A stretch of 64,000 nucleotides of DNA from Candidatus Mcinerneyibacteriota bacterium (GTDB taxonomy: Bacteria > Macinerneyibacteriota > Macinerneyibacteria > Macinerneyibacteriales > DSCS01), in the NCBI GenBank assembly GCA_016937175.1, contig JAFGWL010000056.1, forward strand, positions 25,685-89,684. The letters are read 5' to 3'. The notes beneath the pieces were generated by a model, which was not told the DNA's origin, ran no database searches, and saw only the letters and a list, made by a program, of their open reading frames with translations. A program made the position numbers and the translations under genes. Positions 5,451 through 55,542 of this stretch are shown here, piece by piece (the stretch's first letter is position 1; every line of letters starts with the position of its first letter).

Positions 5451-5477
5451 GAAAAAGGGAGAATATATTATTCTCTC
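5451..5477 (-). terminator. Rho-independent terminator overlapping the stop codon of the giant gene
   Basis: 9-bp stem gggagaata/tattctctc (one G-U pair), loop tat, followed on the minus strand by UUUUUCU. Confidence 0.5.
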
Positions 5478-38005: not shown

Positions 38006-39241
38006 TTATGAACACTTCTCCTTTTTATATTGTTCCAGGATGCTGAGGACAGCTTCGATATCAGCTTCCGTATGATCTCCGTTCACCTGAAAACGGATCT
38101 CTTCATCTCCTTTGGGAACCACAGGGTAGTTCAACCCTGTGGCCAGGACACCGTTCCGGGTAAGATACTCCACCAGGTCTGCTGTCTTCTTCGTATCCCT
38201 GACCAGGAGGGGGACGACGGGATGCTCCCCGGGAAGTGTCTCATACCCCAGGGATATAAGCCCTTCTTTGAATTTCGAAGTCATGGCACGTAAATGCTCC
38301 AGCCTTTTCTTCCCTTCGTCGCTTTCGAGGATATCCAGGACTTTCAGGGCAGCAGCTGCTTCCGAACAGGTTATGGGATTAGAGTAGATATACATGGGGG
38401 TCGTCTCCCGGAAATAGTCGATGACAGCCTGGTCCGACACCACATACCCGCCGTTGACGCCGAAAGCTTTCCCCAGGGTCCCGATGAGAATATCGACTTT
38501 GGCTCCTGTGTACTCTTCTGTCCCTCGTCCGGTCTTACCGAACCCGCCTACTCCGTGGGAATCATCGGCGATGGAGATAACCCCTTCTTCGAACCGGCTG
38601 TCATAGGCACGGCAGAGGGCCGTAAGCTCGTCGAAAGGGCTGTGGTCTCCGCGCATGCTGAAGATGCCGTCGGTAATGACCAGGACTCTCTTCCCCTTCC
38701 CCACAGCCTCTTTGAGTTTGTCTTCCAGATCCTTCATATCATTATGCCTGAAGATAAATTTTTGCGCCGGCCGGGAAAGGCGGAGGGCGTTGATTATACA
38801 ATTGTGGTTGAGTTCGTCGCTGATGACCACGGTCTCCGAAGTCGTCAGGGGAACGATGACCCCCATGCTGGTCACATAGGCCGAGCTCAGGATCATACAG
38901 GCTTCCCGCCCGTGGAAAGAGGCCAGCCTCTTTTCCAGTTCCACATGGGGTTTATGTGTCCCGCTGATAAACCGGACTGCACCCGGGCCCACTCCATATT
39001 CCAGTGCGGCCTTCTCTTCTGCTTTGATGACTTCAGGATGCATAGAGAGGCCGAGATAAGAATTGGCATTCATCTTGATATACTCTTTGTCGCCGCTTCC
39101 TTCCAGAAGATACCGGGGGCCCTTATCCTGGCGGGGAGGAATGATCTTGACAATGATCTTTTCCTTCCCTTTTGACGTCCCCTTTTCCATGAGTTCCAGG
39201 ACTTCCTTCTTCAACAGGTCATTCAATTTATTCAAAGCCAT
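38006..39241 (-). CDS. kbl: 2-amino-3-ketobutyrate CoA ligase (glycine C-acetyltransferase), PLP-dependent
   Basis: GTLGKAFG PLP-lysine motif; YPVVPKGDEEIRFQ; SDELNHNCII. These blocks match KBL/AONS family conservation. Confidence 0.8.
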   Translation of the reverse strand: MALNKLNDLLKKEVLELMEKGTSKGKEKIIVKIIPPRQDKGPRYLLEGSGDKEYIKMNANSYLGLSMHPEVIKAEEKAALEYGVGPGAVRFISGTHKPHVELEKRLASFHGREACMILSSAYVTSMGVIVPLTTSETVVISDELNHNCIINALRLSRPAQKFIFRHNDMKDLEDKLKEAVGKGKRVLVITDGIFSMRGDHSPFDELTALCRAYDSRFEEGVISIADDSHGVGGFGKTGRGTEEYTGAKVDILIGTLGKAFGVNGGYVVSDQAVIDYFRETTPMYIYSNPITCSEAAAALKVLDILESDEGKKRLEHLRAMTSKFKEGLISLGYETLPGEHPVVPLLVRDTKKTADLVEYLTRNGVLATGLNYPVVPKGDEEIRFQVNGDHTEADIEAVLSILEQYKKEKCS

Positions 39242-39255
39242 CTTTGCCTCCTCTT

Positions 39256-40140
39256 TTAGAGTAATCCCATGACAATCGAGTTCAGCTTCGTGGCCGCATC
39301 ATCGGCCCTGCTCAGCATGATGATAGGGGCTTTCCCCCCTACGACAAGCCCTCCGAAGGCACAATCAGCTGTATACATCATAGCTTTGGCCATGAGGTTG
39401 CCGGAAAGGACATCCGGCACCAGGATAATATCGGCATTTCCCGCAACCGGGGAAGAGATCCCTTTGACAGCAGCAGCCTCTTCGGACAAGGCATTATCCA
39501 ACCCGAAGGGCCCGTCGATTATACACCCTTTGATCTGCCCCCGCCGGCTCATCCCTGCCAGAAGAGCAGCATCCAGGGTCGCCTGTGATTTAGGGTTCAC
39601 TGTCTCCACATGAGCCACAGCAGCGATTTTAGGATTATTCCATCCCAGCCTTGACGCATATTCCACGGCATTACCGATGATCATGACCTTATCCTGGAGA
39701 GTGGGTGACAAGACCATTCCACTGTCTGTTATCATAATCAGGCGTCCGATCTTTGCTGCGTCCATGAGGACGATATGGCTTAAGAGAGAGCCTGTCCGCA
39801 GGCCCTTCTCTTCGTCCAGGGCCGCTTTCAAAAAGAGAGCGGTGGGGAGCTTTCCCTTCATCAACGCGTCAGCTTCGCCAGAAGCTACCAGGGAAGCACT
39901 TTTAAGAGCCCCTTCCCACTCCCCGGGAGCATGGATGATCTCATAATCATCCTGTGAGATCTCTGCCTCTTCAAAGGAAGCGTCTATCTTTTCCCTGTCC
40001 CCTACGAGAAGAGAACGGGCGATGCCCTCTCTCCGGGCTTCTTCAAGAGCACGGATCACTTCCCCTCCGTAGGGATGGGCGACGGCTAGCCGCCGGTTCC
40101 TGCCTTTTACTCCGTCAAACAGGTCAGAAAATCTTTTCAC
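39256..40140 (-). CDS. Phosphate acetyl/butyryl-transferase family protein (short Ptb-type)
   Basis: 294 aa, Pta/Ptb fold features. Lies 14 nt upstream of kbl. Confidence 0.7.
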   Translation of the reverse strand: MKRFSDLFDGVKGRNRRLAVAHPYGGEVIRALEEARREGIARSLLVGDREKIDASFEEAEISQDDYEIIHAPGEWEGALKSASLVASGEADALMKGKLPTALFLKAALDEEKGLRTGSLLSHIVLMDAAKIGRLIMITDSGMVLSPTLQDKVMIIGNAVEYASRLGWNNPKIAAVAHVETVNPKSQATLDAALLAGMSRRGQIKGCIIDGPFGLDNALSEEAAAVKGISSPVAGNADIILVPDVLSGNLMAKAMMYTADCAFGGLVVGGKAPIIMLSRADDAATKLNSIVMGLL

Positions 40141-40154
40141 AAGAATCCCTCTTT

Positions 40155-41567
40155 TCAGTTCATCTTCTCAAAAAAGGTTTTATAGGCTTCATAACAGGTA
40201 TAAATATCCATGACCGACGCCAGCTCAAAGGGAGAATGCATGGAGAGGAGGGCCGGGCCGGCATCTACGACATTCATGTTGTATTCAGCCAGGAACTTGG
40301 CGACGGTTCCGCCGCCCCCTTCGTCAACTTTCCCCAGAGTCCCGATCTGCCAATCGACATTATTGTCATCCCATATCCTGCGGACCTTGGCCATAAATTC
40401 GGCATCTGCGTCATTAGAGCCGCCTTTCCCCCCTGAACCGGTATATTTAGTCAGGACGATCCCGTACCCCAGGCGGGGAGCGTTCAAGGGGTCATGGACT
40501 GATTTGAAGTTGGGGTTGATCCCCGCGCCCACATCAGAGGAGAGGACGTTGGATCTCTCCATGGCTTTACGGAGCATAAGGTCGTTGAACCCCTTTTCCT
40601 GATAGTCCATGATCTCAGAGAGGACACGGAGGATAAACCAGGACTGCATCCCCGAACGGCCTTCGCTTCCTATCTCCTCTTTGTCAGCCAAAAAATTCAC
40701 CGCAGTATATTCCGGGTCTTCCACATCAAAGATAGCCATTGAAGAGGTGTAACCGCAGATCCTGTCGTCATGTCCGAAGGCTCCGATGAGTCCTTTATCA
40801 AATCCGACCCACCTGGCAGACCCTGCCGGGACTAGCTGCAGCTCGGCGGAAATAAAATCGGCTTCTGTGATTCCGTATTTCTCGTGAAGGATCTCAAGCA
40901 CATGGATCTTGATCTTGTTTTTGACCTTTTCATCATCTACAGGGATGGACCCGCAGAGCATGTTGAGGTCTTCTCCTGAAAAACCGCTGAGAAGCTTCTT
41001 ATCTCCCTGGATCTTCCTGGAGAGGTGAGGAAGCACATCGGGAAAAGTCAGGACTCCCTCCTCTTCTTTTTCTCCCCAGACGATATTGATCCTTGTCCCG
41101 TCTTTTTTCACGATAATCCCGTGAAGGGCCAGAGGCAGGTTCACCCAGTGATATTTTTTGATCCCTCCGTAATAGTGTGTCTTGACAAGGCAATACTCCT
41201 CGTCTTCATAGAGGGGGTTCATCTTCAGGTCGATATGGGGGACATCCACATGGGAGGCCACAAGATTGACCCCATCTTTTACACTCTTTTCTCCCAGGAC
41301 GATCAGGACAAGGTTCTTTTCCTGATTTACATCATAGAATTTACGATGCCCCTTTTTTCCCAGTTGAGACAGAGGCAAAAACCCTCTCTTTTCGGCCATT
41401 TTGACCACTTCGCGGACATTCTCACGCTCTGTCTTCACCGCCGAGAGAAAATTCCTGTATTCTTCGCTGAACCGGAAGGCTTTCTTTCTCACTTCACCGT
41501 CATGTTTGATCCAGCTGCTTTTTTTCTCATTGAGCAACTCTTTTTCCAGTTTTTCATATTTTGTCAT
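40155..41567 (-). CDS. M18-family aminopeptidase (aspartyl aminopeptidase-like)
   Basis: 470 aa; His/Asp/Glu-rich metal-binding blocks typical of M18/M42. Confidence 0.7.
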   Translation of the reverse strand: MTKYEKLEKELLNEKKSSWIKHDGEVRKKAFRFSEEYRNFLSAVKTERENVREVVKMAEKRGFLPLSQLGKKGHRKFYDVNQEKNLVLIVLGEKSVKDGVNLVASHVDVPHIDLKMNPLYEDEEYCLVKTHYYGGIKKYHWVNLPLALHGIIVKKDGTRINIVWGEKEEEGVLTFPDVLPHLSRKIQGDKKLLSGFSGEDLNMLCGSIPVDDEKVKNKIKIHVLEILHEKYGITEADFISAELQLVPAGSARWVGFDKGLIGAFGHDDRICGYTSSMAIFDVEDPEYTAVNFLADKEEIGSEGRSGMQSWFILRVLSEIMDYQEKGFNDLMLRKAMERSNVLSSDVGAGINPNFKSVHDPLNAPRLGYGIVLTKYTGSGGKGGSNDADAEFMAKVRRIWDDNNVDWQIGTLGKVDEGGGGTVAKFLAEYNMNVVDAGPALLSMHSPFELASVMDIYTCYEAYKTFFEKMN

Positions 41568-41652
41568 TCGTATCCCTCCTTCATTTTTTTCCTGTGCCTA
41601 TTATAGAGGGAAGGGCTTTCCCGTCAAGGCTATTATTTCGTATACAGAAACA

Positions 41653-42828
41653 TCAAAACCATAAAACGATCCCTGTCAGCGCAGCCGCCGCCATAAAAAG
41701 AGGCAGTGATGCAGGAATCAAAAATCTCTTATACAGACTTGTGAGTTTTACATCAAAATAGTCCACCGTAAGCACCAGGCAAAGATGAGTGGGAGAGAGG
41801 ATGATACCCACAAAGACAAAGGTGTAAAGTGCCAGAAGATGGAGCAGTCCGAAATCGGGAAAAAGGGCCATGAAAACGGGAAAAGCGATACTCACCCCGG
41901 CAACCGTCAGCCCCGTGGCAAACCCCACCACCAGAGGCAGCCCCATAAAAAAGAGGATCAGAAGCCAGGAGGGGATAGCCCCTACGCTTCCGAAGATCTC
42001 TCCTTCCTGGACAATAGTCTTAAAAAACATCGCTCCGAAGATCAGAAAAAACATCGAAAGATAACGGATCTTTCCGAAAGCCCTGAAAAAGTCTTTTGCG
42101 GGGATCTTTTCAGCCAGAGTGAAAACCAGAACGGATATAACAAGGCTCAACAGGATATTCAACCTGAAGAGGGCATAAAGAAGGATCAGGAGGATGATGG
42201 GATAGATGATCCGGAGAAGCTCTCTCCAGTTGACAGCCCCGAATTTCAAAGGGCCGTCTACATGCCTGATCATAAAAAATCCCGACAGGACCGCAAGAAG
42301 CATCAACGGGAGCATTCCCAGGAAGACCGATGAGAAGCGAATGGTTACAAATCCGTTCATAAACAGGATGATAGCCGGATATAGAGGCCATCCGAACTCC
42401 CAGACATGCCTGAACCAATAGTTGACAAAGGCTTTCTCCTCCCCTGTCATCCGGAGACTTTCTCCGATCTGCCCCACAAAGGGAGCCGAGACCATGGCTC
42501 CTCCCGGCATGGGTATAAGCCCGATGAGCATGGCCGGAAAAAGCAGAGCGCTTTTACTGACCCCCATATGTCCCGCCAGGGAATCGATCCGTCCCTTTTT
42601 CCCCATGAGGTTAAGAAGGAGATAGATAAGATAGACTGTAAAAAGAAGCTGGATATTACTCCAGTCTGTCACAGTAGCCAGGGCAAACCGGTAGGCTCGG
42701 TAGTTGGGTATATGGAAGGCAAAGAGACTGAGCAGCCCTGAAAAGACAAGGGCCAGGCCGATATTGACCTTCATCTTGATCAACAGGATCAAAAAGACGA
42801 TGATCAGGAGAAATTTGAGAAAAATCAT
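41653..42828 (-). CDS. Polytopic membrane protein of unknown function (about 10-12 TM), possibly DUF401-like
   Basis: Highly hydrophobic, 391 aa. Located immediately downstream of the decarboxylase beta subunit. Confidence 0.55.
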   Translation of the reverse strand: MIFLKFLLIIVFLILLIKMKVNIGLALVFSGLLSLFAFHIPNYRAYRFALATVTDWSNIQLLFTVYLIYLLLNLMGKKGRIDSLAGHMGVSKSALLFPAMLIGLIPMPGGAMVSAPFVGQIGESLRMTGEEKAFVNYWFRHVWEFGWPLYPAIILFMNGFVTIRFSSVFLGMLPLMLLAVLSGFFMIRHVDGPLKFGAVNWRELLRIIYPIILLILLYALFRLNILLSLVISVLVFTLAEKIPAKDFFRAFGKIRYLSMFFLIFGAMFFKTIVQEGEIFGSVGAIPSWLLILFFMGLPLVVGFATGLTVAGVSIAFPVFMALFPDFGLLHLLALYTFVFVGIILSPTHLCLVLTVDYFDVKLTSLYKRFLIPASLPLFMAAAALTGIVLWF

Positions 42829-42886
42829 GTAAGATCATTCCCTTTCTGAAAAAGGAACCCGGAAAACTATTCCGGGTCCCTGTATC

Positions 42887-44095
42887 TTACTTGACAAAAA
42901 TGGCCAGAAAGACCCCTGCAGCAATGGCCGAACCGATGACTCCGGCGACATTGGGTGCCATAGCGTGCATAAGCAGATGGTTGTCTTTATCATACTGCCG
43001 GGCAAAATGCTGGACCACGCGGGCAGAATCGGGAACAGCCGAGACCCCGGCAGCCCCGATCAGGGGATTGATCTTTCTTTTTAAAAAGAGGTTCATGATC
43101 TTGGCGAAAAGAAGCCCTGAAGCTGTAGCCACAGCAAAAGAGAGAGCCCCCAGGCCGAAGATCTTCAAAGATTCCCATTTGATAAAATAACTGGCCTGTG
43201 TACTGGCGCCCACGGAAAATCCCAGAAGGATCGTCGCGATATCAAGGATAGCATTGGCTGCAGTCTTGGCCAGGCGTTCAGTTACTCCGCTCTCTTTAAG
43301 AATATTCCCGAACATGAGCATTCCTACCAGGGGAATGGCTCCGGGGGCTATAAGAGCTGATCCGATGAAAGCGATGACCGGAAAAGCGATGCGTTCCACT
43401 TTGGTCACTCTCCGGGGCGGCTGCATCCTGATAAGACGTTCTTTTTTTGTGGTCATCAGTTTCATGATAGGCGGTTGGATCACCGGCACAAGGGCCATAT
43501 AGGAATAGGCTGCGATGGCAATGGGGCCCAAAAGCGGCGGGGCAAGCTGAGAGGCTATAAAGATGGATGTAGGGCCGTCGGCTCCGCCGATGATCCCTAT
43601 AGAAGCCGCCTCCATGGGAGTGAAACCCAGATAGAGGGCTCCCAGGAAAGTGGCATAGATCCCCACCTGGGCCGCTCCGCCCAGAAGAACGGATTTTGGG
43701 CTTGATATCAGTGTAGAGAAATCGGTCAGAGCTCCGATGCCCAGGAAGATCAGCGGGGGAAAGATACCGGCCCGCACCCCCCAGTAGATATAACTGAAGA
43801 CACTGTCCATACTGAACCCGTTGGCCACCGTATCATAGACCCCGATAGGGATGTTGGGAGCACTGGCGATATTCCCAATGATGATTCCGAACCCGATGGG
43901 CAGGAGAAGAAGAGGCTCATATTTTTTGGCAATAGCCAGGTATATGGCCACGATTCCCACAACCAGCATGATGATATTCCCCCACTGCATATGGGCAAAC
44001 CCTGTATTCCCCAGGATGTCTTTGAAGAGGTCGATCAGATGTTCCAATGAAGCCGGAATCGCCATCTGGCTGCTTAAGGCAGAAATCACGTGCAT
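42887..44095 (-). CDS. mmdB: Na+-translocating decarboxylase beta subunit (OadB/MmdB/GcdB family)
   Basis: 402 aa integral membrane protein with characteristic beta-subunit sequence. Confidence 0.85.
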   Translation of the reverse strand: MHVISALSSQMAIPASLEHLIDLFKDILGNTGFAHMQWGNIIMLVVGIVAIYLAIAKKYEPLLLLPIGFGIIIGNIASAPNIPIGVYDTVANGFSMDSVFSYIYWGVRAGIFPPLIFLGIGALTDFSTLISSPKSVLLGGAAQVGIYATFLGALYLGFTPMEAASIGIIGGADGPTSIFIASQLAPPLLGPIAIAAYSYMALVPVIQPPIMKLMTTKKERLIRMQPPRRVTKVERIAFPVIAFIGSALIAPGAIPLVGMLMFGNILKESGVTERLAKTAANAILDIATILLGFSVGASTQASYFIKWESLKIFGLGALSFAVATASGLLFAKIMNLFLKRKINPLIGAAGVSAVPDSARVVQHFARQYDKDNHLLMHAMAPNVAGVIGSAIAAGVFLAIFVK

Positions 44096-44107
44096 GCTTT
44101 CTCTCCT

Positions 44108-44554
44108 TTATTCCAGGACGATGAGGATGTCTCCTTCATAGACAGAATCCCCGCGTCTGACCTTTATCTCTTTAACTGTCCCCTCCTGGGGCGACTGGAC
44201 TTCATTCTCCATCTTCATGGCTTCCATGATCAGGACATCCTGTCCGGCTTTCACCATGTCTCCCTCTTTGACAAGAATCTCCAGGATGAGTCCCGGAAGC
44301 GGCGCTGTCACATGGCCGGACCCTACGACCTCCCTGGGTTTCCTGAGAGTTTCTCCCTCTTTGGCAGCCGGAGCTGGCTGCCTTTTGAGAGGCGGAGCTG
44401 CAGGTCTGATATCCAGAGCCTTGGGCTCTCCCAGGTCTTTCAGCCCGACGGTATACTCGGTTCCGTTGACAGAAAGTTTCGCTTTTTCGGCGCCGAACTC
44501 CTGCACTTTGACTTTGTACTCTTTTCCGTTTATTTCAAGTGTGATTTCCTTCAT
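44108..44554 (-). CDS. mmdC: Biotin carboxyl carrier subunit of the decarboxylase
   Basis: EAMKMENE biotinyl-lysine motif. Confidence 0.85.
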   Translation of the reverse strand: MKEITLEINGKEYKVKVQEFGAEKAKLSVNGTEYTVGLKDLGEPKALDIRPAAPPLKRQPAPAAKEGETLRKPREVVGSGHVTAPLPGLILEILVKEGDMVKAGQDVLIMEAMKMENEVQSPQEGTVKEIKVRRGDSVYEGDILIVLE

Positions 44555-44562
44555 ACTCCCCC

Positions 44563-44967
44563 CTATACTCTATGGCCGTATTTCATGCCGGATTTCCAGG
44601 CAGTCTGTTCGCGGCCTTGCCGAAATGTTATTTTACTTTGCAGTTCATCCATATGGAGCCTTTTATAGAGCTCCACGGTGGCCCCGATGGCCGCCAGGAT
44701 GTCACTGTCCAGCTCATCCTGGACAATGATCCCCTTTTCCGCGGCTGCAGACGGTACAGTAACGGATTCTCCGGGGATATCGGTTTTGATCTTTTTAGCC
44801 GGGGAATGGGTAAAGACGATATTAAACAGGGCAATAAGCAGAGCGATGAGGATGAGCCCTGTGAAAACAGTCATAATACCGCTTAACGCCACATTTCCTC
44901 CATGGAACTTCTCCTGGATGGCCTGTTGCACCACGGGATCCTGGGTCATCTGTAAGAGCAGATACAC
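44563..44967 (-). CDS. Small membrane-anchored subunit (OadG/MmdD-like)
   Basis: N-terminal TM helix; size and position between the alpha and biotin-carrier subunits. Confidence 0.55.
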   Translation of the reverse strand: MYLLLQMTQDPVVQQAIQEKFHGGNVALSGIMTVFTGLILIALLIALFNIVFTHSPAKKIKTDIPGESVTVPSAAAEKGIIVQDELDSDILAAIGATVELYKRLHMDELQSKITFRQGREQTAWKSGMKYGHRV

Positions 44968-44982
44968 GATACTCCCCTCCCC

Positions 44983-46533
44983 TTACAACGGGATGTTCCC
45001 GTGTTTTTTCGGCGGGTTCTGATCCCTTTTATTCTGAAGCATCTCAAGCGCCTTGATCAGTTTATAACGTGTCAGCTTGGGTTCGATGACATCGTCCACA
45101 TCTCCCCGTGACGCTGCCACATAGGGGTTGGCGAACTTTTCCCGGTACTCCTCTTCTTTTTCCTGCAGCTTGGCTTCAGGATTCTCAGATGCAGCGATCT
45201 CTTTGGCAAAGACGATCTCGCTGGCTCCTTTGGGACCCATGACGGCGATCTCTGCAGAGGGCCAGGCAAATATCATGTCGCCGTTGAGCTGTTTGGAGTT
45301 CATGACGCAATAGGCTCCTCCGTAAGCTTTTCTTGTAATGACCGTGATCCGCGGGACAGTGGCCTCGGCATAAGCATAGAGCAGTTTTGCCCCGTGGCGG
45401 ATGATCCCGCCGTATTCCTGGACAGTTCCCGGCATGAAGCCCGGGACATCTTCAAATGTGACGATAGGAACATTGAACGCGTCACAGACCCGGACAAAAC
45501 GGGCTGCTTTAACAGAAGCATTGATATCAAGGACCCCGGCCAGATGTTTGGGCTGGTTGGCGACGATCCCGATGCTCTTTCCGTTAAGGCGGGCATATCC
45601 GATGACGATATTGGGTGCGAAATATTCCTGGACTTCTAAGAACTTCCCGTCATCCACGATACGGGTGATGATATCCTTGACATCGTAAGGTTTATTGGGG
45701 TTGTCAGGGATGATATAGTTGAGTTCTTCATCGACGCGGTCCACGGGATCCTCAGTCTTGACGACGGGAGGCTCCTCCATATTATTCTGGGGCAGATAAG
45801 AGAGCAGGACCCTGATTCCCTCAAAGAGGTCTTTTTCATTGTCATAGGTCATGTGAGTCACACCGCTTTTTGTCGCGTGGACCATGGCTCCGCCCAACTC
45901 TTCTTTGGTCACATCCTCGTGGGTGACGGCTTTGACCACTTTAGGGCCCGTGACAAACATCTGAGATGTATTCTGGGCCATAAAAATAAAATCTGTGACG
46001 GCGGGAGAATAGACCGCCCCCCCGGCTGCAGGCCCCACGATAGCCGTGATCTGGGGAACGACCCCCGAATACATGACATTGCGGTAGAAGATAGAGGCAT
46101 ATCCTGCCAACGCTCCGACTCCTTCCTGAATACGGGCTCCGCCGGAATCGTTGATCCCCACTACGGGAGCTCCCGTCTTGGCTGCCATTTCCATGATCTT
46201 AACGATCTTGGCCGCCACTGTCTCGGAAAGAGAACCGCCGATCACAGTAAAATCAAAAGAATAGACAAAGACCAGACGGCCTTCCACTGTCCCATATCCG
46301 GTGACCATGCCGTCACCATAGTATTTTTTCTTTTCCATGCCGAACTCGGTGCAGGTATGGGTTCGAAGGGCGTCGATCTCTTCAAAGCTCCCCTGATCCA
46401 GGAGCAGTTCAATGCGCTCCCGGGCGGTGAGTTTTCCTCTGGCATGCTGCTTAGCGATAGCCTCTGTCCCGCCGCCGGATCGGGATTTTTCCATTTTCTC
46501 TTTCAGTTCAAGGATTTTACGGTCCATGGACAT
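44983..46533 (-). CDS. mmdA: Methylmalonyl-CoA decarboxylase alpha subunit (carboxyltransferase)
   Basis: 516 aa acyl-CoA carboxyltransferase fold. Confidence 0.85.
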
Positions 46534-46537
46534 AATC

Positions 46538-46951
46538 TTACTCCTCTCCGGCCTGGCACAGTTCAGTCAGTACTTTGGCCGATGATTTTGGATGTAAAAA
46601 AGCTATACGGCTGCCGTGGGCGCCGCTTCGGGGTTCTTCATCGATGAGACGGACCCCTTTTCCCTTCATAATGCTTAACTCGTCTTCAATGTCGTCTGTG
46701 TTGTAAGCCAGGTGATGGATCCCTTCGCCCTTCTTTTCAATGAATTTTGCAATAGGGCTCTCTTCTGAAAGAGGTTCCAACAACTCGATCTTCACTTCAC
46801 CCACTTGAAACATAGCCACCCTGACCTTCTGCTCAGGCACTTCTTCCGTCCCTACCAGCTTCAATCCGAGGATATCCCTGTAAAAAGGGATTTGCTCCTC
46901 CAGCGAAGAGACAGCGACTCCTACATGGTCGATCTTCCTGATCATTGTCAT
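46538..46951 (-). CDS. Methylmalonyl-CoA epimerase (VOC/glyoxalase fold)
   Basis: 137 aa; IDHVGVAV...EGIHHLAY. Confidence 0.8.
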
Positions 46952-47904
46952 TCACTCTCCTTTTTTAAAAAAAACCGTAAACGCTCATTTATAAAATGGT
47001 ATGGTTTGACGTCCTTATTATAGATCATTTCAGCCCATTCGCCCACATTATTATAAAAATCCATTTTTCTGTCAAGTAATTCGTGGATTTTAAGCGAAAA
47101 TATCCTGAGAAGCTCCTTCCGGATGCGCTCTTTTCTCTTTTCCCTGAGCTCCCCGCTCTCCTCCAGCTGACCATAGAGCCTTTCCATCTCATTCCGGAGA
47201 TGATCCAGTCCCTTCTTCATCTTGGCAGAGACCAGGCAGACAGGGTTCATCTTCTCTTTTTCACCGGCATATTTGAACCCCAGGACATATTCCACTTCTG
47301 TGCGAAGCTTTTCAGCTCCCTCTTTGTCGCTCTTATTGATGACAAAAATATCTCCGATCTCCATGACTCCGGCCTTCATCGCCTGGATCTCATCCCCCAT
47401 GCCGGGGACAAGGACAAGGAGGACTAGGTCGGTGAGCTCGATGATATCCACTTCTGTCTGGCCCACTCCGATGGTCTCCACGATAATCGTGTCAAATCCG
47501 GCGGCGTCCAGGACCTTGACTGCGTCGAGCGTCGCGCCGGAAACTCCCCCGAGATGGCCCCGGGAAGCCATGGAGCGGATAAAGACTCCGTCATCCTCTG
47601 CATGGGACTGCATCCTGAGCCGGTCTCCCAGCAGGGCCCCGCCCGTAAAGGGAGAGCTGGGGTCCACGGCCACAACTGCGACTTTCCGGCCCCTATCCCG
47701 CTCACAGGAGATGAGAAGATCAGCGAGTGTGCTCTTGCCGGCGCCGGGCGGGCCTGTAATCCCCCAGACCTGCGCCTTCCCCGTGTGGGGAAAGAGAGCA
47801 TCGATCAACTCCTCGCGCCCTTTTATGTTATTTTCCACCAGAGAGATTCCACGGGCGATGGCCCGGATCTTTCCCCCGATGATATCACGGGCCAACTCGG
47901 TCAT
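46948..47904 (-). CDS. meaB: MeaB/ArgK-type G-protein chaperone of methylmalonyl-CoA mutase
   Basis: P-loop [13 protein letters not shown]; 4-nt overlaps with both neighbours. Confidence 0.85.
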
Positions 47905-48308
47905 TGATTCCGTTCATCCCTTTTCGATTCGATAAAATCCACGATCTCCTGTATCGGTGTTCCCGGAGTGAAGACAGCCCGAACTCCTTTTTCCTTCAAG
48001 AAAGGAATATCCTCTTCGGGGATGACACCTCCCCCGAAAACGATGATATCGGCAGCATCATTCTCACGGAGAAGATCCACGATCCGGGGAAAGAGTTCGT
48101 TATGAGCCCCTGAAAGAAGACTCAGCCCGACAAAATCAACATCCTCCTGCAGGGCCGTCCTGACAATGCTTTCGGGAGTCTGCCGGATGCCTGTATAGAT
48201 GACTTCATACCCTTCATCTTTCAGAGCCCGGGCGACATATTTTGCTCCTCTGTCATGGCCGTCCAGGCCGGGTTTGGCGATCAGTATCCTTAATTTTCGT
48301 TTACTCAT
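47901..48308 (-). CDS. Methylmalonyl-CoA mutase B12-binding subunit
   Basis: DxHxxG cobalamin-binding motif ([12 protein letters not shown]). Confidence 0.85.
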
Positions 48309-48319
48309 TTTTTCCCCCT

Positions 48320-49993
48320 TTACAGAACAATAGACTCTTTATATTCTCCGTAGACTTCCCTCAGGATATTGCATATCTCCCCCAGAGAGGCATATTCCCG
48401 TACAGCATCGATGATGAGCGGCATCAGGTTCACATCAGGCTTCGCTGCGGCGTCTTCCAGGGCTTTCAACGCCTTTTTAACCGCCTCATTATCACGTTCG
48501 GCTTTTGTCCGGGCCAGTTTTTTGACCTGAAGGTCCCGCAAAGCGGGATCGACTTTGAGAAGGTCTCTGGGAGCTTCCTCTTTGATCGTAAACTTGTTGA
48601 CACCCACAACGATACGGTCACCTTTTTCCACATCCTTCTGGTAACGGTAGGCGGCATCCTGGATCTCTTTCTGTATATAACCCTTTTCGATAGCTTTTAC
48701 CATTCCGCCCATCTCTTCGATCTTTTCGATATAATCCATGGCTTCGTTGTAGATGCGGCTGGTCAGGGCTTCTACATAATAGGAACCGGCCAGGGGGTCC
48801 ACGGTATTGGCCACCCCGGACTCATGGGCCACGATTTGTTGCGTCCTCAAAGCAATACGGACAGAATCCTCTGTGGGCAGGGCCAGAGCCTCGTCTCTGG
48901 AATTTGTATGAAGGCTCTGGGTCCCTCCCAAAACAGCGGCCAAAGTCTGGATCGCAACACGGACGATATTGTTGTCCGGTTGCTGAGCGGTCAGGGTCGA
49001 ACCTCCTGTCTGTGTATGAAAACGCAGCATCATGGACTTCGAGGACTTTGCAAGAAACTTCTCTTTCATGAGCGTCGCCCATATCCTCCTGGCAGCCCGG
49101 TATTTGGCTACTTCTTCCAGAAGGTCGTTATGAGCATTGAAGAAAAAGGAGAGACGGTCGGCGAACTGGTCTACATCGAGCCCTGCCCTGACTGCGGTCT
49201 TGACATATTCCATGCCGTCGGCGATGGTAAACGCCACTTCCTGGACAGCCGTAGACCCCGCCTCCCTGATATGATAACCGGAAATGCTGATAGTGTTCCA
49301 TTTGGGGACCTCTTTTGAGCAGAACTCAAAGATATTCGTGATCAGGCGCATGGAGGGCTCCGGAGGAAAGATATAGGTCCCCCGGGCGATATACTCTTTC
49401 AGGATATCATTCTGTATCGTCCCGCGGAGCTGATCCCGGGAGACGCCCTGCTTTTCTCCTACGACGATATACATGGCCAGAAGGACCGAGGCAGGAGCAT
49501 TGATGGTCATGGATGTGGAGACTTTGTCCAGGGGGATCCCCTCGAAAAGGATCTCCATATCTTTGAGTGTATCGATGGCGACACCCACTTTTCCCACTTC
49601 GCCCACACTCATGGCATCATCCGAGTCATACCCGATCTGCGTCGGCAGATCAAAAGCCACGGAGAGGCCGGTCTGGCCTTGCTCCAGCAAATATTTATAC
49701 CTTCTGTTGGATTCTTCAGCTGTGCCGAATCCGGCATATTGCCGCATGGTCCAGAAACGGCCCCGGTACATGGTAGGCTGGACACCCCTTGTGAAGGGGT
49801 ATTCTCCGGGAAAGCCGACTTCATCCAGCCAGCGCTCTTCGTCAAAGGACTCAGGAGAATAGGCACGGTCTACGGGGATATCCGATCCCGTAACAAAGAT
49901 CTCTTTCCGTTCCGGGAAACGGCTGATGACTTTATCTACGGTTTTTTCCTCCCACTTTCTGCGGGCTTCCTTGATTTTCTTATACTCTTCCAC
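48320..49993 (-). CDS. Methylmalonyl-CoA mutase catalytic (large) subunit
   Basis: 557 aa; TIM-barrel mutase N-domain. Confidence 0.9.
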
Positions 49994-50003
49994 GATAGCC
50001 TCC

Positions 50004-51203
50004 TTACTTTTCCTGTGTCAGCTCAAGGGTCTCTTTGGCGATCATCAACTCTTCGTTGGTGGGGATGACCAGGACTTTGATGCGGCTTTCCGGAGCGGAG
50101 ATATCCACTCTTTTCCCCCGCACCTTGTTCTTCTCCTTGTCGATTTTAATCCCCAAAAACTCCATTCCGCTGCAGATCTCTTCTCTGGTCTCCCAACCGT
50201 TCTCCCCGATACCGGCGGTAAAGACAAGGGCATCGGCCCCGTTCATGACAGCCAGATAGCCCCCTATAAACTTTTTAGCGTTATAATGGACAAGGTCCAG
50301 GGCCAGCTGGGCCCTCTTGTCTTTCTCGTTCCAGGCCTTCTGCTCGATGTCCCGCATATCGCTCGAGATCCCCGAGACGCCCAGCATCCCGCTTTTTTTG
50401 TAAATAAGGTCATGCAGGCTCTCAGGCGTGAAATCCCCTGTATTGAGAAGGTGAGTCAATATTCCCGGATCGAAATCACCGGCCCGGGTACCCATGGGGA
50501 TCCCGCACATGGTACTGAAACCCAGGGAAGTGTCCACAGAATGGCCGTTCTGAACGGCGCTGAAAGATGTCCCGTTCCCCATATGGCAGGTAATGACCTT
50601 GATCTCCTCAAAGGGGCGCCCCAGCATAGCTGCCGCTTCCAGAGCCACATAATGATGGGATGTCCCGTGAAATCCGTACCTGCGTATCCCGTACTGCTCG
50701 TAAAGCTCATAAGGCAGAGCATACATATAGGCCTTTTCGGGCATCCTTGAATGGAAAGAGGTATCAAAGACGATGACATTGGGGACCTGCGGGATCAGCT
50801 CCAGCATAGCCTTGACACCCACCAGGTTGTGCGGATTGTGAAGAGGAGCCAGATGATTCAGCTTTTCCAGAGCGGGAATATCCTCAGCAGTGACCACAGC
50901 AGAATCTTTATACTCTTCTCCTCCGTGGACATAACGATGTCCCACAGCATCGATCTCATTGAAATCGGAGATGACTCCGTGTTCTGAATCCGTCAGAATA
51001 TCGAGAACGGCAGAGAGCCCTTCCTTATGTCCGGGAATCTGAAGGGTTTTTTTGTGTTGATCTCCATCCGTCTTCCAGGAGATGGCCGATTCTTCCAGGC
51101 CGATCCTCTCCACAAGTCCCCTCAGCAAGACCTCTTCGCTTGACATGTCAAGCATCTGGAACTTGATGGATGAACTTCCTGAATTCAATACCAAAATTTT
51201 CAT
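50004..51203 (-). CDS. ackA: Acetate (propionate) kinase
   Basis: [17 protein letters not shown]-terminal motif. 399 aa. Confidence 0.9.
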
Positions 51204-52534
51204 AAATCTTCCTCCAATTGGCTGTTTCGTTTCAACTTAATCACAACTTCTCCGTCAATCGTATCCCGGTTGAAATCGGCAGAAAAGAAGAGTCTTGAGA
51301 AATTTGCATAGACACCTTCATTCTTATAGACTTCATTGAGATAGAGACTGTCCATATAGAGACTGATATGGGAGCTACGGTATATCAGGCCCCGCACAAA
51401 ATCCCCTGCCCGGGAAGAGGGTAAGATCCCCGTCTCCAGGCCCCGGTTATAGATTTTTAAGCTGTGCAGGCTGTCAAAAAAAAGAAGAAAATCCCCCCGG
51501 GCGTAATAGAAGGGCCTTTTCATCTCCTCCCACTTTTCTTTAAACAAGTTCTTAACGATGAGGCCGGCTATCCCTGTCACATCCACAGTCCAGGCCCGAA
51601 GTCCGTCGAAATCATCTTCCCTGAACTCAACAGGGTAGCGTTTTTCCAATTCTCCGGCGATCCGCCCCATCTCTTTCAATCCGGTTTCTTTCTCCATGAC
51701 GGCGAAATAATCATCCACATCGCGGGCTCCGATCACGGCTCCCGCTTCTAAAAGGGGCATGATCTGTTTCTCGATATCGATGCCTGTCTTTTCATAGATC
51801 TTTCTTCGGGTCTCCATGAACTTCTGAAAAAGGGCACTCCTCTGAAACATCTTTCTGATACGGGCATAATGAGCTTCGAAATCCGCCATGTTGACCTTGA
51901 GTATAAAGTCGGAATCGGAAGGGACCAGGGCCAGACACTTCTCCGCCCGGGCCTGCTGCGCAGCATCCCCTATGGGGTTCTTCATGTGATAGGAGATTTT
52001 AAGCGCGTTGTGCCGGGATAAGACATTGACTTCACCCCAGAGGGCTTCTCCGAGTTCCTCCTCTTTCAAAAACATCTCAGGCCTCTTCAGGACAAACCGG
52101 GCATCCCCTCCTCCTTTGAGCTTTCCTGTCTCTTCCCTGTGTGATCCGATATAGCCCCCCGTCATGACATAGTCTTTATTGGTCGTAATACAGAGTACAT
52201 TCCCTTCCACCGGACCCAGCGAGGAAAAGAGCGGCGCTAAAAATGAGAGTTCGATGAAAATATAGGTGTTTTTATCCTGATCCAGGGCCAGATAAAAGTC
52301 TTTACCAGGGAGCCATCTGATCCACTTCTTACTCTTGAATTCTCCTGCATAACGGTCAACAAGAGGGGAATCAAGTTTGAGAAAAGACTTGAAAGAGCGG
52401 ACTTTGGCAAAAGCCACGGTGTCCTGAGGGAAAAAATCAGGAGCGCTCCGGCGGTTAAAAAGATAGTACGCCCCGATGGTTAAGAGAATAAGGAGAATTA
52501 GGGTCAGGGCAACCCCGGGAATTTTTTTTTTCAT
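51200..52534 (-). CDS. Hypothetical N-terminally anchored protein (about 444 aa)
   Basis: Start MKKKIPGVALTLILL with GGGGA SD. The track start at 52555 is a TTG abutting the tRNA. 4-nt overlap with ackA. Confidence 0.55.
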   Translation of the reverse strand: MKKKIPGVALTLILLILLTIGAYYLFNRRSAPDFFPQDTVAFAKVRSFKSFLKLDSPLVDRYAGEFKSKKWIRWLPGKDFYLALDQDKNTYIFIELSFLAPLFSSLGPVEGNVLCITTNKDYVMTGGYIGSHREETGKLKGGGDARFVLKRPEMFLKEEELGEALWGEVNVLSRHNALKISYHMKNPIGDAAQQARAEKCLALVPSDSDFILKVNMADFEAHYARIRKMFQRSALFQKFMETRRKIYEKTGIDIEKQIMPLLEAGAVIGARDVDDYFAVMEKETGLKEMGRIAGELEKRYPVEFREDDFDGLRAWTVDVTGIAGLIVKNLFKEKWEEMKRPFYYARGDFLLFFDSLHSLKIYNRGLETGILPSSRAGDFVRGLIYRSSHISLYMDSLYLNEVYKNEGVYANFSRLFFSADFNRDTIDGEVVIKLKRNSQLEEDL

Positions 52535-52555: not shown

Positions 52556-52628
52556 TGTGCCCGAAAGGAGTCGAACCTTCAGCCTACAGATCCGGAGTCT
52601 GTCGCTCTATCCATTGAGCTACGGGCAC
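52556..52628 (-). tRNA. tRNA-Arg (anticodon CCG)
   Basis: Hand-folded cloverleaf: acceptor GUGCCCG/CGGGCAC, D-stem GCUC/GAGC, anticodon stem ACAGA/UCUGU with loop CUCCGGA, T-stem GAAGG/CCUUU with loop UUCGACU. No encoded CCA. Confidence 0.85.
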
Positions 52629-52639
52629 GTACGAGCAGT

Positions 52640-52667
52640 ATTATAATGGCCCTTTAAGACTTGTCAA
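52640..52667 (-). promoter_or_regulatory. Perfect consensus sigma70 promoter TTGACA-16nt-TATAAT driving tRNA-Arg
   Basis: Minus-strand TTGACA (plus 52662-52667), 16-nt spacer, TATAAT (plus 52640-52645). tRNA +1 lies 11 nt downstream. Confidence 0.6.
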
Positions 52668-54078: not shown

Positions 54079-55542
54079 CTATTCTCCTTTTTTTTCATTT
54101 CTCATTCTTATAAAAGCATCTTTTCCCATGAGTTGTCCGGTCAAAAGAGGATAGGCTTCATGGAGTTTCTCCCGTATCATCTCTGACAAGGCCCGGATCC
54201 CCCATTGGGCATGGGTGTCGCTCCGGAGACGGACAAAATGGTACCATTCGCGGAGGTTGGCTTTGACCACGACTTTTCGTCTGTGGGCATTGGTAAGGAC
54301 ATAGCCTGCCCCGTTCTTATCGTATAATCTCACTTTCTCATAAAATTCATTGACTCTTTCGATCTCTTCCATGAAAGAGCCTTCTTCCCCTATCTCTTTG
54401 ATGGAATCGGGGACCGTAACCCCCAGGCCGGGAGTGTATTCCCCCGTTAGCCGGCTCATCAGGCGATGCCTTTTCAGCTGGGCATAACAGGAGGCCGAGG
54501 CCAGGACTTCAAATGTCGCTGTGGCCAGTTCAAAGGCCCTGTCCACGCTGTCATAAAAGTTGATCCCCTTCATCGCCTCCCTGATAACGCTCTTCTTGTC
54601 AATGGTTTTGATATTGTCCAGAAGGGCCTGATAATCATGGCCGGAATCTTCAAAGACCAGTCCGGCCACTACCTTATCCTCACCGTCTGACGTCCATGAA
54701 ACCAGACGGACGATATCGGGGCCGGGATCCAGTCGTTGTGTTTTGACTGGGAATCCTCCCCGCCAGGCTTTCACATCATATTCTCCGGGCTCATGGAAAA
54801 CGACCAGCGAGGGAACCTTGTCCCGGACCAGGCTGAATATCTCGTCTCCCAGCATGCGGACCTCATACAACGGGGAGGCTGCCATCTGACGAAGTATATA
54901 TTCGAGGTTTCTGGCGTTGACTGTCATCCCCATCTGCGATGTGGTGGCCAGAGAGAGGATATACCGGGCGTCCTCTTTCGCCTTTCCCGTCAGCTCCCGT
55001 TCTGAAATCCGGGGTTCCTTCTCTTTGAAATATTCGAGGAGAGCGGTGTAGTACCGGTTATAGAGGTTGTTTTCTCTCTCCAGGAGTTCCCTGAACTCCC
55101 GGGTAAGCTCCTTATCGTCTTTGATCTCATCGGGAGTGATAAAATCTTTTCCAAGTTTAATATACCTTTGTGATTTTTCTGTAAAAGAGAGGAGGCGATG
55201 CTCCTGGAGCCATTCTGAAGCCAGGCGGGAGATTCCGAGAAGATCAAAATTGAAGACGGCATGCTCGGCAATAGATCCGTGCCCCATCCCGTAGATGATC
55301 TTTTCATTGGACCTCCGGGCCTTTTCGACTTCCCGGACAGCCTGGCTTCTCAGCTCCTCAACGGAGAGAGGCGACCGGCTGATGCGGGCATAGGCTGCTG
55401 AGATGGTTTCAGGGGTAAGAGCTCCGTTTTTCAGCAGGCGGATCAGTTCATCCCGGGATCTTTCGTCCTCTTCCAGCAGGGCTTTTTCCATAAGTTGCAG
55501 AAGTGACATGTCAATATTCATGCCGGCAAGAATAACCTTCAT
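54079..55542 (-). CDS. thyX: Flavin-dependent thymidylate synthase, long (double-length) form
   Basis: ThyX signature-like EHRLLSFTEKSQRY in the first half and KRHRLMS in the second half. 487 aa versus about 220-280 aa for canonical ThyX. Confidence 0.7.
   Translation of the reverse strand: MKVILAGMNIDMSLLQLMEKALLEEDERSRDELIRLLKNGALTPETISAAYARISRSPLSVEELRSQAVREVEKARRSNEKIIYGMGHGSIAEHAVFNFDLLGISRLASEWLQEHRLLSFTEKSQRYIKLGKDFITPDEIKDDKELTREFRELLERENNLYNRYYTALLEYFKEKEPRISERELTGKAKEDARYILSLATTSQMGMTVNARNLEYILRQMAASPLYEVRMLGDEIFSLVRDKVPSLVVFHEPGEYDVKAWRGGFPVKTQRLDPGPDIVRLVSWTSDGEDKVVAGLVFEDSGHDYQALLDNIKTIDKKSVIREAMKGINFYDSVDRAFELATATFEVLASASCYAQLKRHRLMSRLTGEYTPGLGVTVPDSIKEIGEEGSFMEEIERVNEFYEKVRLYDKNGAGYVLTNAHRRKVVVKANLREWYHFVRLRSDTHAQWGIRALSEMIREKLHEAYPLLTGQLMGKDAFIRMRNEKKGE

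Follow-up and report, generated by a model that had tools for sequence, protein, structure and literature searches.

Na+-translocating methylmalonyl-coenzyme A (CoA) decarboxylases are encoded by mmdADCB in Propionigenium modestum and by mmdADECB in Veillonella parvula, and in both organisms a mutase and an epimerase are coupled to the enzyme. In Escherichia coli, the sbm-ygfD-ygfG-ygfH operon (scpA-argK-scpB-scpC) joins a B12-dependent mutase to a MeaB-type G-protein and a methylmalonyl-CoA decarboxylase. Here we analyse a 64-kb stretch of DNA (the window, meaning this whole stretch) from an uncultured member of Candidatus Mcinerneyibacteriota, whose minus strand carries, between positions 41653 and 51203, ten closely packed open reading frames (ORFs) for a split methylmalonyl-CoA mutase with its accessory proteins, a membrane-bound decarboxylase, a kinase and a polytopic membrane protein of the DUF401 family. 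We put at about 0.7 the probability that this locus serves a peptide- and amino-acid-fermenting bacterium as its central operon for forming propionate and conserving energy. A little-known candidate phylum would then use the textbook B12- and biotin-dependent route to propionate, with energy conserved by means of Na+.

The likeness to Propionigenium and Veillonella lies in four decarboxylase subunit types arranged as A-D-C-B, which is the order of P. modestum (references listed in PMC7145394), and in their coupling to mutase and epimerase. The E. coli operon differs in having a fused mutase, a soluble, biotin-independent decarboxylase of the crotonase family that conserves no energy, and a CoA-transferase. 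Compared with Propionigenium and Veillonella, only the window joins kinase, MeaB, mutase and epimerase in one operon led by a transfer RNA (tRNA) gene. In contrast to Veillonella, no epsilon subunit is seen in the window and its cluster contains no succinate/propionate CoA-transferase. The canonical route of these two organisms opens with the activation of succinate to succinyl-CoA by a CoA-transferase (PMC8473912), and the Veillonella cluster is described as beginning with a CoA-transferase gene (PMC11441152).

The same eight genes, in the same order and at nearly equal sizes, are present in the cultured bacterium Caldithrix abyssi (large mutase subunit, B12-binding mutase subunit, meaB, mce and mmdA-D-C-B, encoding 557/134/319/137/516/144/159/381 amino acids) and in Marinimicrobia. 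MmdB of these organisms is 72-73% identical to that of the window, and a protein search returned thousands of close MmdB relatives. The Caldithrix and Marinimicrobia operons differ in having neither a tRNA gene, a gene for a protein of about 440 amino acids nor ackA upstream, and no DUF401 gene downstream. In the sister lineage Candidatus Mcinerneyibacterium aminivorans (Ca. M. aminivorans), the same operon includes ackA and a counterpart of the 444-amino-acid first gene described below, and no DUF401 gene follows mmdB.

The module is a widespread operon type, and its biochemistry is neither new nor missing from public annotation. Six proteins of the window have exact matches in the protein collection. 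Five of these are already annotated in records of the National Center for Biotechnology Information (NCBI; between MBN2727183 and MBN2727194, on one 266-kb contig), under the names DUF401 family protein, methylmalonyl-CoA mutase family protein, acyl-CoA carboxylase subunit beta, aminopeptidase and hypothetical protein. The sixth, MmdB, has an exact match in Logan assemblies only, and its NCBI record is a shorter version of 392 amino acids.

Gene content and enzyme types

ORFs of the window were assigned by Pfam and NCBIfam profile searches against curated cut-offs. All ten ORFs that an earlier note, made from the sequence alone, had described lie on the minus strand where it put them, every gene identity it proposed was upheld, and each start codon is preceded by a Shine-Dalgarno sequence. 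The acetate/propionate-family kinase (AckA type; 50004-51203, minus strand, as for all features below; PF00871 at E 1e-146, TIGR00016 483 bits, cut-off 293) had been described as lying next to the module and proved to be part of the operon. It is followed by the catalytic, large subunit of a split methylmalonyl-CoA mutase (48320-49993; TIGR00641 854 bits, cut-off 304) and a separate B12-binding subunit (47901-48308; TIGR00640 175 bits, cut-off 57), in which the DxHxxG cobalamin-ligand motif appears as DGHDRG at residue 16. MeaB, the G-protein chaperone of the mutase (46948-47904; TIGR00750 330 bits, cut-off 241), carries the P-loop GPPGAGKS, and methylmalonyl-CoA epimerase (46538-46951; TIGR03081 171 bits, cut-off 115) comes next.

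The decarboxylase genes complete the series. They encode the carboxyltransferase MmdA (alpha, 44983-46533; PF01039 674 bits), an MmdD-like small membrane subunit of the OAD_gamma family (44563-44967; PF04277 42 bits, cut-off 27) whose single hydrophobic segment in a rough hydropathy scan covers residues 23-58, the biotin carrier MmdC (44108-44554; PF00364) with its AMKM biotinylation motif at residue 112, and MmdB, the predicted Na+ pump and carboxybiotin decarboxylase of the membrane (beta, 42887-44095; TIGR01109 486 bits, cut-off 191). The DUF401/TIGR00529 protein of 391 amino acids (41653-42828) closes the ten. The genes had been described as contiguous with 4-nucleotide overlaps; within the ten this holds only for the B12 subunit and MeaB and for MeaB and epimerase, while the other junctions are gaps of 4-15 nucleotides and mmdB and the DUF401 gene lie 58 nucleotides apart. 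A third 4-nucleotide overlap forms the upstream edge of the series, where ackA meets a further ORF of 444 codons, and the real start of the operon lies upstream of position 51203, where the earlier note had ended it.

Sequence comparison places the decarboxylase with the methylmalonyl-CoA type. MmdA scores 595-695 bits against propionyl-CoA and methylmalonyl-CoA carboxyltransferases in the PDB (1vrg, 1x0u, 1on3 and others; PccB, 12S and MmdA-like chains) and only 112-127 bits against the glutaconyl-CoA decarboxylase subunit GcdA. TIGR01117 (mmdA) is by far its best-scoring model, yet at 838.6 bits it stays under the trusted threshold of 998.8. The Pfam and NCBIfam scan found no HMGL-like or PYC_OADA domain, as in oxaloacetate-type alpha subunits, in the operon and no biotin carboxylase or ATP-grasp domain among the scanned ORFs of the window. 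MmdB matches Salmonella OadB (6iva_A) at 361 bits and is identical to it at D203, Y229, N373, G377, S382 and R389, which we take to be the Na+-translocation residues of OadB. The type of decarboxylase proposed earlier, with a membrane-bound beta subunit, is thus borne out by bit scores and domains, and the glutaconyl-CoA and oxaloacetate types are ruled out. The locus encodes a predicted Na+-translocating methylmalonyl-CoA decarboxylase, in which decarboxylation of (S)-methylmalonyl-CoA would be coupled to Na+ export.

The best PDB match of the mutase catalytic subunit, at 586 bits, is HcmA, of a split 2-hydroxyisobutyryl-CoA mutase. HcmAB and IcmAB resemble the enzyme of the window in having separate subunits, a catalytic one of about 560 and a B12-binding one of about 135 amino acids. 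However, the window mutase agrees with human methylmalonyl-CoA mutase (MCM) at Tyr86 (RQYAGF), Arg204 (ARGTYIF) and SVAFD, where HcmA has Ile, Gln and STDFD. These are presumably the positions that set substrate specificity, with Tyr and Arg as the substrate-carboxylate residues; in isobutyryl-CoA mutase the first two are Phe and Gln. The proposal of a split mutase of the methylmalonyl-CoA type agrees with these MCM-like positions and with the TIGR00641 and TIGR00640 assignments.

Operon start, leader and terminator

The sole candidate promoter for the operon is a sigma-70 consensus site, TTGACA-16-TATAAT (52640-52667, 12 of 12 matches). Both hexamers are kept in the related loci L001 and L004, and L172 (Ca. 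M. aminivorans) and L175 have TTGACA-17-TATAAT. Downstream of it lies a gene for tRNA-Arg(CCG) (52556-52628; identified by ARAGORN, and by Rfam RF00005 at 70.9 bits), which ends 21 nucleotides before the first ORF. The same tRNA stands at the equivalent position in six related loci (L001, L004, L092, L095, L172 and L175), and its distance to the first ORF is 21-26 nucleotides across the Mcinerneyibacteriota loci examined. Between tRNA-Arg(CCG) and the first ORF we found no terminator and no second promoter, so the catabolic operon is probably co-transcribed with the tRNA and then processed away from it. The operon leader is taken up by the tRNA and its promoter. The earlier note had seen no B12 riboswitch ahead of the mutase genes, and the Rfam scan of the window agrees: no cobalamin riboswitch was found, and one tRNA is the only Rfam hit that reaches its gathering score. 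With a consensus promoter common to operon and tRNA and no riboswitch, the operon appears to be set up for expression that is strong and constitutive.

The first gene of the operon (51200-52534) encodes a protein of 444 amino acids that has no Pfam or NCBIfam match, one N-terminal membrane helix (hydrophobic residues 2-29) and a 4-nucleotide overlap with ackA. Only six representatives fall below 1e-30 among 1.84 billion proteins, and matches to DUF3352 proteins are weak. A homologue lies directly before ackA in L001, L004, L172 and L175, and between the window and Ca. M. aminivorans the first-gene proteins are 27% identical, against 76% for MmdB. This protein of roughly 416-444 amino acids (L172 1596-2915; L175 245-1495) is lineage-restricted and fast-evolving. 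An AlphaFold model of it from a five-sequence alignment reached a predicted local distance difference test (pLDDT) score of 37 and was not used. The series of promoter, tRNA, 444-amino-acid-type gene and ackA is kept in every Mcinerneyibacteriota locus examined, including Ca. M. aminivorans, although the genes upstream differ there.

At its other end, the operon most likely stops at a predicted intrinsic terminator. Directly 3' of the mmdB stop codon, inside the mmdB-DUF401 gap, lies a terminator-like hairpin with a 12-bp stem, a 5-nucleotide loop and a U5 run (42848-42881; folding free energy -26.1 kcal/mol, z -4.3). It was spotted in the sequence by eye, and folding bore it out; the consensus terminator scan left it out, though its rules seem to apply. 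Six relatives have a counterpart of this hairpin with other stem sequences, at -24 to -31.5 kcal/mol, with a U-run in five of the six. The version in L093 and L095 is a textbook terminator, A4-GCCCGGG/CCCGGGC-T7, and in Ca. M. aminivorans mmdB is likewise followed by a canonical terminator. The consensus promoter scan found no promoter-like site in the mmdB-DUF401 spacer. DUF401 expression would be possible only by read-through of the mmdB terminator, because the spacer leaves no space for a separate promoter. Separate transcription of the membrane protein, which we checked, is thus favoured in one respect, the terminator that sets it apart from mmdB, and disfavoured in another, the lack of its own promoter. 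The earlier note's view that the gene is appended to the operon did not stand, as it lies after a conserved terminator and the Ca. M. aminivorans operon lacks it.

The next transcription unit opens with a promoter-like site, TTGACG-16-TATAAT (41600-41627, 11 of 12 matches), which is kept in L001 and, in altered form, in L004. Three genes would make up this unit. The first encodes an M18-family aminopeptidase (40155-41567; PF02127, NF002600 647 bits, cut-off 529) and the second a phosphotransacylase resembling phosphate butyryltransferase (Ptb; 39256-40140; PF01515), whose scores for NF004472 (349 bits, cut-off 399) and TIGR02706 (336 bits, cut-off 410.5) are both below threshold. The Ptb-like enzyme is likely the partner of the kinase, converting acyl-CoA to acyl-phosphate. 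The third gene encodes a Kbl/BioF-type alpha-oxoamine synthase, a pyridoxal-phosphate-dependent acyltransferase (38006-39241; glycine C-acetyltransferase 342 bits, BioF 310 bits, both below cut-off). Its reading as an aminotransferase, from the Pfam family Aminotran_1_2 only, was rejected, the best NCBIfam matches being Kbl and BioF.

Direction of the pathway and source of succinyl-CoA

Transcription would run from the promoter through tRNA-Arg(CCG), the membrane-anchored protein and ackA to mutase, MeaB and epimerase, and on through mmdA-D-C-B to the terminator. Judging from the enzyme families, the mutase, kept loaded by MeaB, would convert succinyl-CoA to (R)-methylmalonyl-CoA, the epimerase would convert this to the (S)-form, and the biotin-dependent decarboxylase would split the (S)-form into propionyl-CoA and CO2 with export of Na+. 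The Ptb-like phosphotransacylase of the next unit would then make propionyl-phosphate from propionyl-CoA, and the kinase would make propionate and ATP. A kinase in the operon and a phosphotransacylase next door thus suggest that propionyl-CoA goes to propionate with a gain of ATP, and that CoA is released.

The earlier note had seen in these genes a complete module from succinate to propionate. What is encoded covers only the conversion of succinyl-CoA to propionyl-CoA with Na+ export, and no CoA-transferase or AcetylCoA_hydro domain was found in any long minus-strand ORF of the 64 kb, a scan that left aside a few short plus-strand ORFs. The surroundings are rich in peptidases, with M55, M19, two TldD/PmbA, S33, M16C, two M16 and the M18 family members between 1466 and 41567, an unusually high density that fits a peptide-fermenting lifestyle. 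Since no succinate-activating CoA-transferase is encoded here and the setting is peptidase-rich, succinyl-CoA would more probably come from amino-acid breakdown (for example, from glutamate by way of 2-oxoglutarate) than from external succinate. The M16C member is PreP-like and 1000 amino acids long, and the S33 member is an alpha/beta hydrolase.

Two other uses of the module have to be weighed against propionate formation from amino acids. In the manner of Propionigenium and Veillonella, external succinate could enter by Na+/succinate symport through DUF401 and be activated by a CoA-transferase encoded elsewhere, with decarboxylation building the Na+ gradient. The A-D-C-B order together with mutase and epimerase agrees with the canonical route. 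Additionally, neither mmdA nor even the entire pathway is a predictor of succinate consumption (PMC11441152), which implies that a further determinant of uptake exists, beyond mmdA and the pathway. We nevertheless regard succinate decarboxylation as unlikely, as the scan of the 64 kb found no CoA-transferase, the operon kinase and the phosphotransacylase next door would release CoA and not recycle it, the setting is peptidase-rich, and DUF401 lies after the terminator, is missing from the operon of the sister lineage and is unlinked to mmd elsewhere. Less probable still is that the module works in reverse for syntrophic propionate oxidation, in which kinase and phosphotransacylase would activate propionate and a reversed Na+ pump, driven by the Na+ gradient, would carboxylate propionyl-CoA on the way to succinyl-CoA. 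Every step is chemically reversible, Dimroth and Hilpert reportedly obtained reversal of the Na+ decarboxylase in vitro in 1984, the kinase gene comes second in the operon, and some metagenome samples behind the related contigs are probably anaerobic digesters and sediments. However, the syntrophic propionate oxidisers described to date use, to our knowledge, a transcarboxylase or an ATP-dependent carboxylase rather than a membrane decarboxylase; genes for succinate dehydrogenase, fumarase or similar enzymes are absent nearby, and the neighbourhood is proteolytic.

For propionate formation from peptides and amino acids, which we prefer, several points count on the other side. The scores of mmdA, mmdC, the Ptb-like enzyme and TIGR00529 fall under the curated NCBIfam cut-offs. 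A preference of the kinase and phosphotransacylase for propionyl over acetyl or butyryl substrates is not assignable from their sequences. Flux direction and succinyl-CoA source are both deduced from 64 kb, part of a contig that spans at least 266 kb, and a CoA-transferase, a succinyl-CoA synthetase or a 2-oxoglutarate:ferredoxin oxidoreductase may be encoded elsewhere in the genome.

The DUF401 protein and other genes of the window

PF04165 (DUF401), a family that the earlier note had named, matches the membrane protein at 190 bits against a threshold of 24; TIGR00529 reaches only 214 bits against a cut-off of 378. All 18 family-invariant residues are present, in the clusters PMPGG...SAP, NYWFRHxWE...P.Y and SPxHLC, with N136, R140, H141, E144, H348 and C350 as the distinctive conserved residues. 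Its two halves are homologous (hhalign 90%, E 1.6e-6). The family is widespread in anaerobic bacteria and archaea, a few members in relatives weakly match CitMHS or GntP, the family profile has no match among PDB sequences even at E 10, and the searchable literature yielded no functional work on DUF401, TIGR00529 or Mcinerneyibacteria.

The modelled fold, with two homologous halves that each contain a helical hairpin, resembles elevator carriers of the IT superfamily, including its solved members. The closest known carriers are the large, DctM-like subunits of TRAP systems (SiaQM, IseQM), DASS (VcINDY, NaDC3, NaS1), ArsB and AbgT; unlike TRAP systems, DUF401 has no gene for a Q or P partner. 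The model thus marks DUF401 as a predicted stand-alone, elevator-type secondary carrier of the IT superfamily, most structural relatives of which move small anions. Its conserved residues sit in helix-loop-helix and broken-helix elements of the model, where they would form a putative binding site. Our best guess at its cargo is a carboxylate, carried by cation coupling that profits from the Na+ gradient.

Within one clade, DUF401 and the operon keep their arrangement. The order of mmdB, hairpin, DUF401 and M18 gene, with a spacer of 55-58 nucleotides, persists where DUF401 is only 51% identical. Gene context was surveyed by neighbour clustering in 80 genome loci and by targeted phmmer searches in 172 loci. 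The 80 genome loci and 75 further metagenome loci cover Thermoplasmata, Thermococcus, Atribacterota, Aminicenantes, Zixibacteria, Desulfobacterales, Nitrospirota and other groups. The most frequent neighbours of DUF401 include an ECF sigma factor (9 of 82 groups in the first set), DnaA, a class IV aminotransferase and a nitroreductase, which share no functional theme. Neither does another transporter family take its place after mmdB in other phyla or in the sister lineage; there, the next gene encodes a GNAT acetyltransferase (Ca. M. aminivorans), an aminotransferase (Caldithrix) or DUF454 (Marinimicrobia). Beyond the clade, the nearest DUF401 proteins (44% and 38% identity) have other gene contexts. 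L156 (1520-4660) repeats the pairing with M18: after a distant DUF401 (33% identity) come an ORF of 163 amino acids and a closely related M18 gene (403 bits against the M18 protein of the window), with no mmd genes. A weak mmdA-like match in L137 was set aside as an AccA-type acetyl-CoA carboxylase subunit.

What these observations say of the role of DUF401 can be read in several ways. DUF401 may have been recruited behind the Na+-pumping decarboxylase, importing on the Na+ gradient a feedstock such as succinate or an acidic amino acid from M18; we hold this tentatively and consider it rather unlikely. Against it, DUF401 lies next to mmd only in one clade (proteins 51-98% identical), no mcm or mmd genes adjoin it outside this Mcinerneyibacteriota clade in the 80 genome and 75 metagenome loci, Ca. 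M. aminivorans has none behind its mmdB, and the adjacency may be without functional meaning. That the protein is a housekeeping carrier unrelated to the propionate pathway, lying by chance between two transcription units in one lineage, is a reading we take more seriously, although we would not call it probable. This would agree with the conserved terminator, with the Ca. M. aminivorans, Caldithrix and Marinimicrobia operons that lack DUF401, with a survey of about 160 DUF401 loci of many phyla in which no neighbour recurs in more than 9 of the 82 groups of the first set and none is of the mcm or mmd kind, and with the position elsewhere of the nearest outside relatives. It fits less well with a spacing of 55-58 nucleotides that leaves no room for a promoter and persists down to 51% DUF401 identity, or with expression that must pass the mmd terminator, which would therefore tie DUF401 to expression of the operon.

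The two remaining explanations seem to us far less probable. Under one of them, this DUF401 subclade would be tied to cobalamin handling, such as the uptake of corrinoids or cobalt, and not to carbon flux. The two nearest outside DUF401 proteins (L007 and L010/L011) adjoin a gene for a PduO-type cob(I)alamin adenosyltransferase, the DUF401 gene of the window follows a B12-enzyme operon without an adenosyltransferase, and the family has invariant His, Cys and Glu residues. However, DUF401 and adenosyltransferase genes are convergent and not operonic, the loci are only two and perhaps of common ancestry, by Rfam no cobalamin riboswitch precedes DUF401 in the window, L007, L008 or L010, none of about 155 further DUF401 loci has the adenosyltransferase, and no corrinoid carrier is among the structural matches listed; a tie to cobalamin is thus a slim prospect. 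The earlier note had offered a carrier or an extra decarboxylase subunit as roles for the membrane protein. The fold favours the former and contradicts the latter, to which we give almost no credence: only the position beside mmdB speaks for an extra subunit, whereas the Caldithrix, Marinimicrobia and Ca. M. aminivorans enzymes, with MmdB 72-76% identical, do without DUF401, and a terminator separates the two genes. The adjacency of DUF401 and mmd is a single evolutionary event in one lineage, and the link of DUF401 to the propionate pathway is weak. This lineage offers one of few contextual hints to the role of the family, and the hint itself is weak. Import of a feedstock, if true, would give the DUF401 family its first substrate and make it a candidate for the missing determinant of external succinate use (PMC11441152).

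The stretches in which DUF401 and the adenosyltransferase gene (PF01923) converge are L007 6890-9218, L010 10001-11713 and L011 1302-3014, which amount to two independent loci. Elsewhere in the window, a ThyX-type thymidylate synthase of 487 amino acids (54079-55542) contains two Thy1 stretches; ThyX is usually about half this length, and the sequence suggests a tandem fusion. Two giant paralogues of 1591 and 1579 amino acids (5468-10243 and 12142-16881) combine TPR repeats with a C-terminal GGDEF diguanylate cyclase domain, and the M19 dipeptidase and an unassigned gene lie between them.

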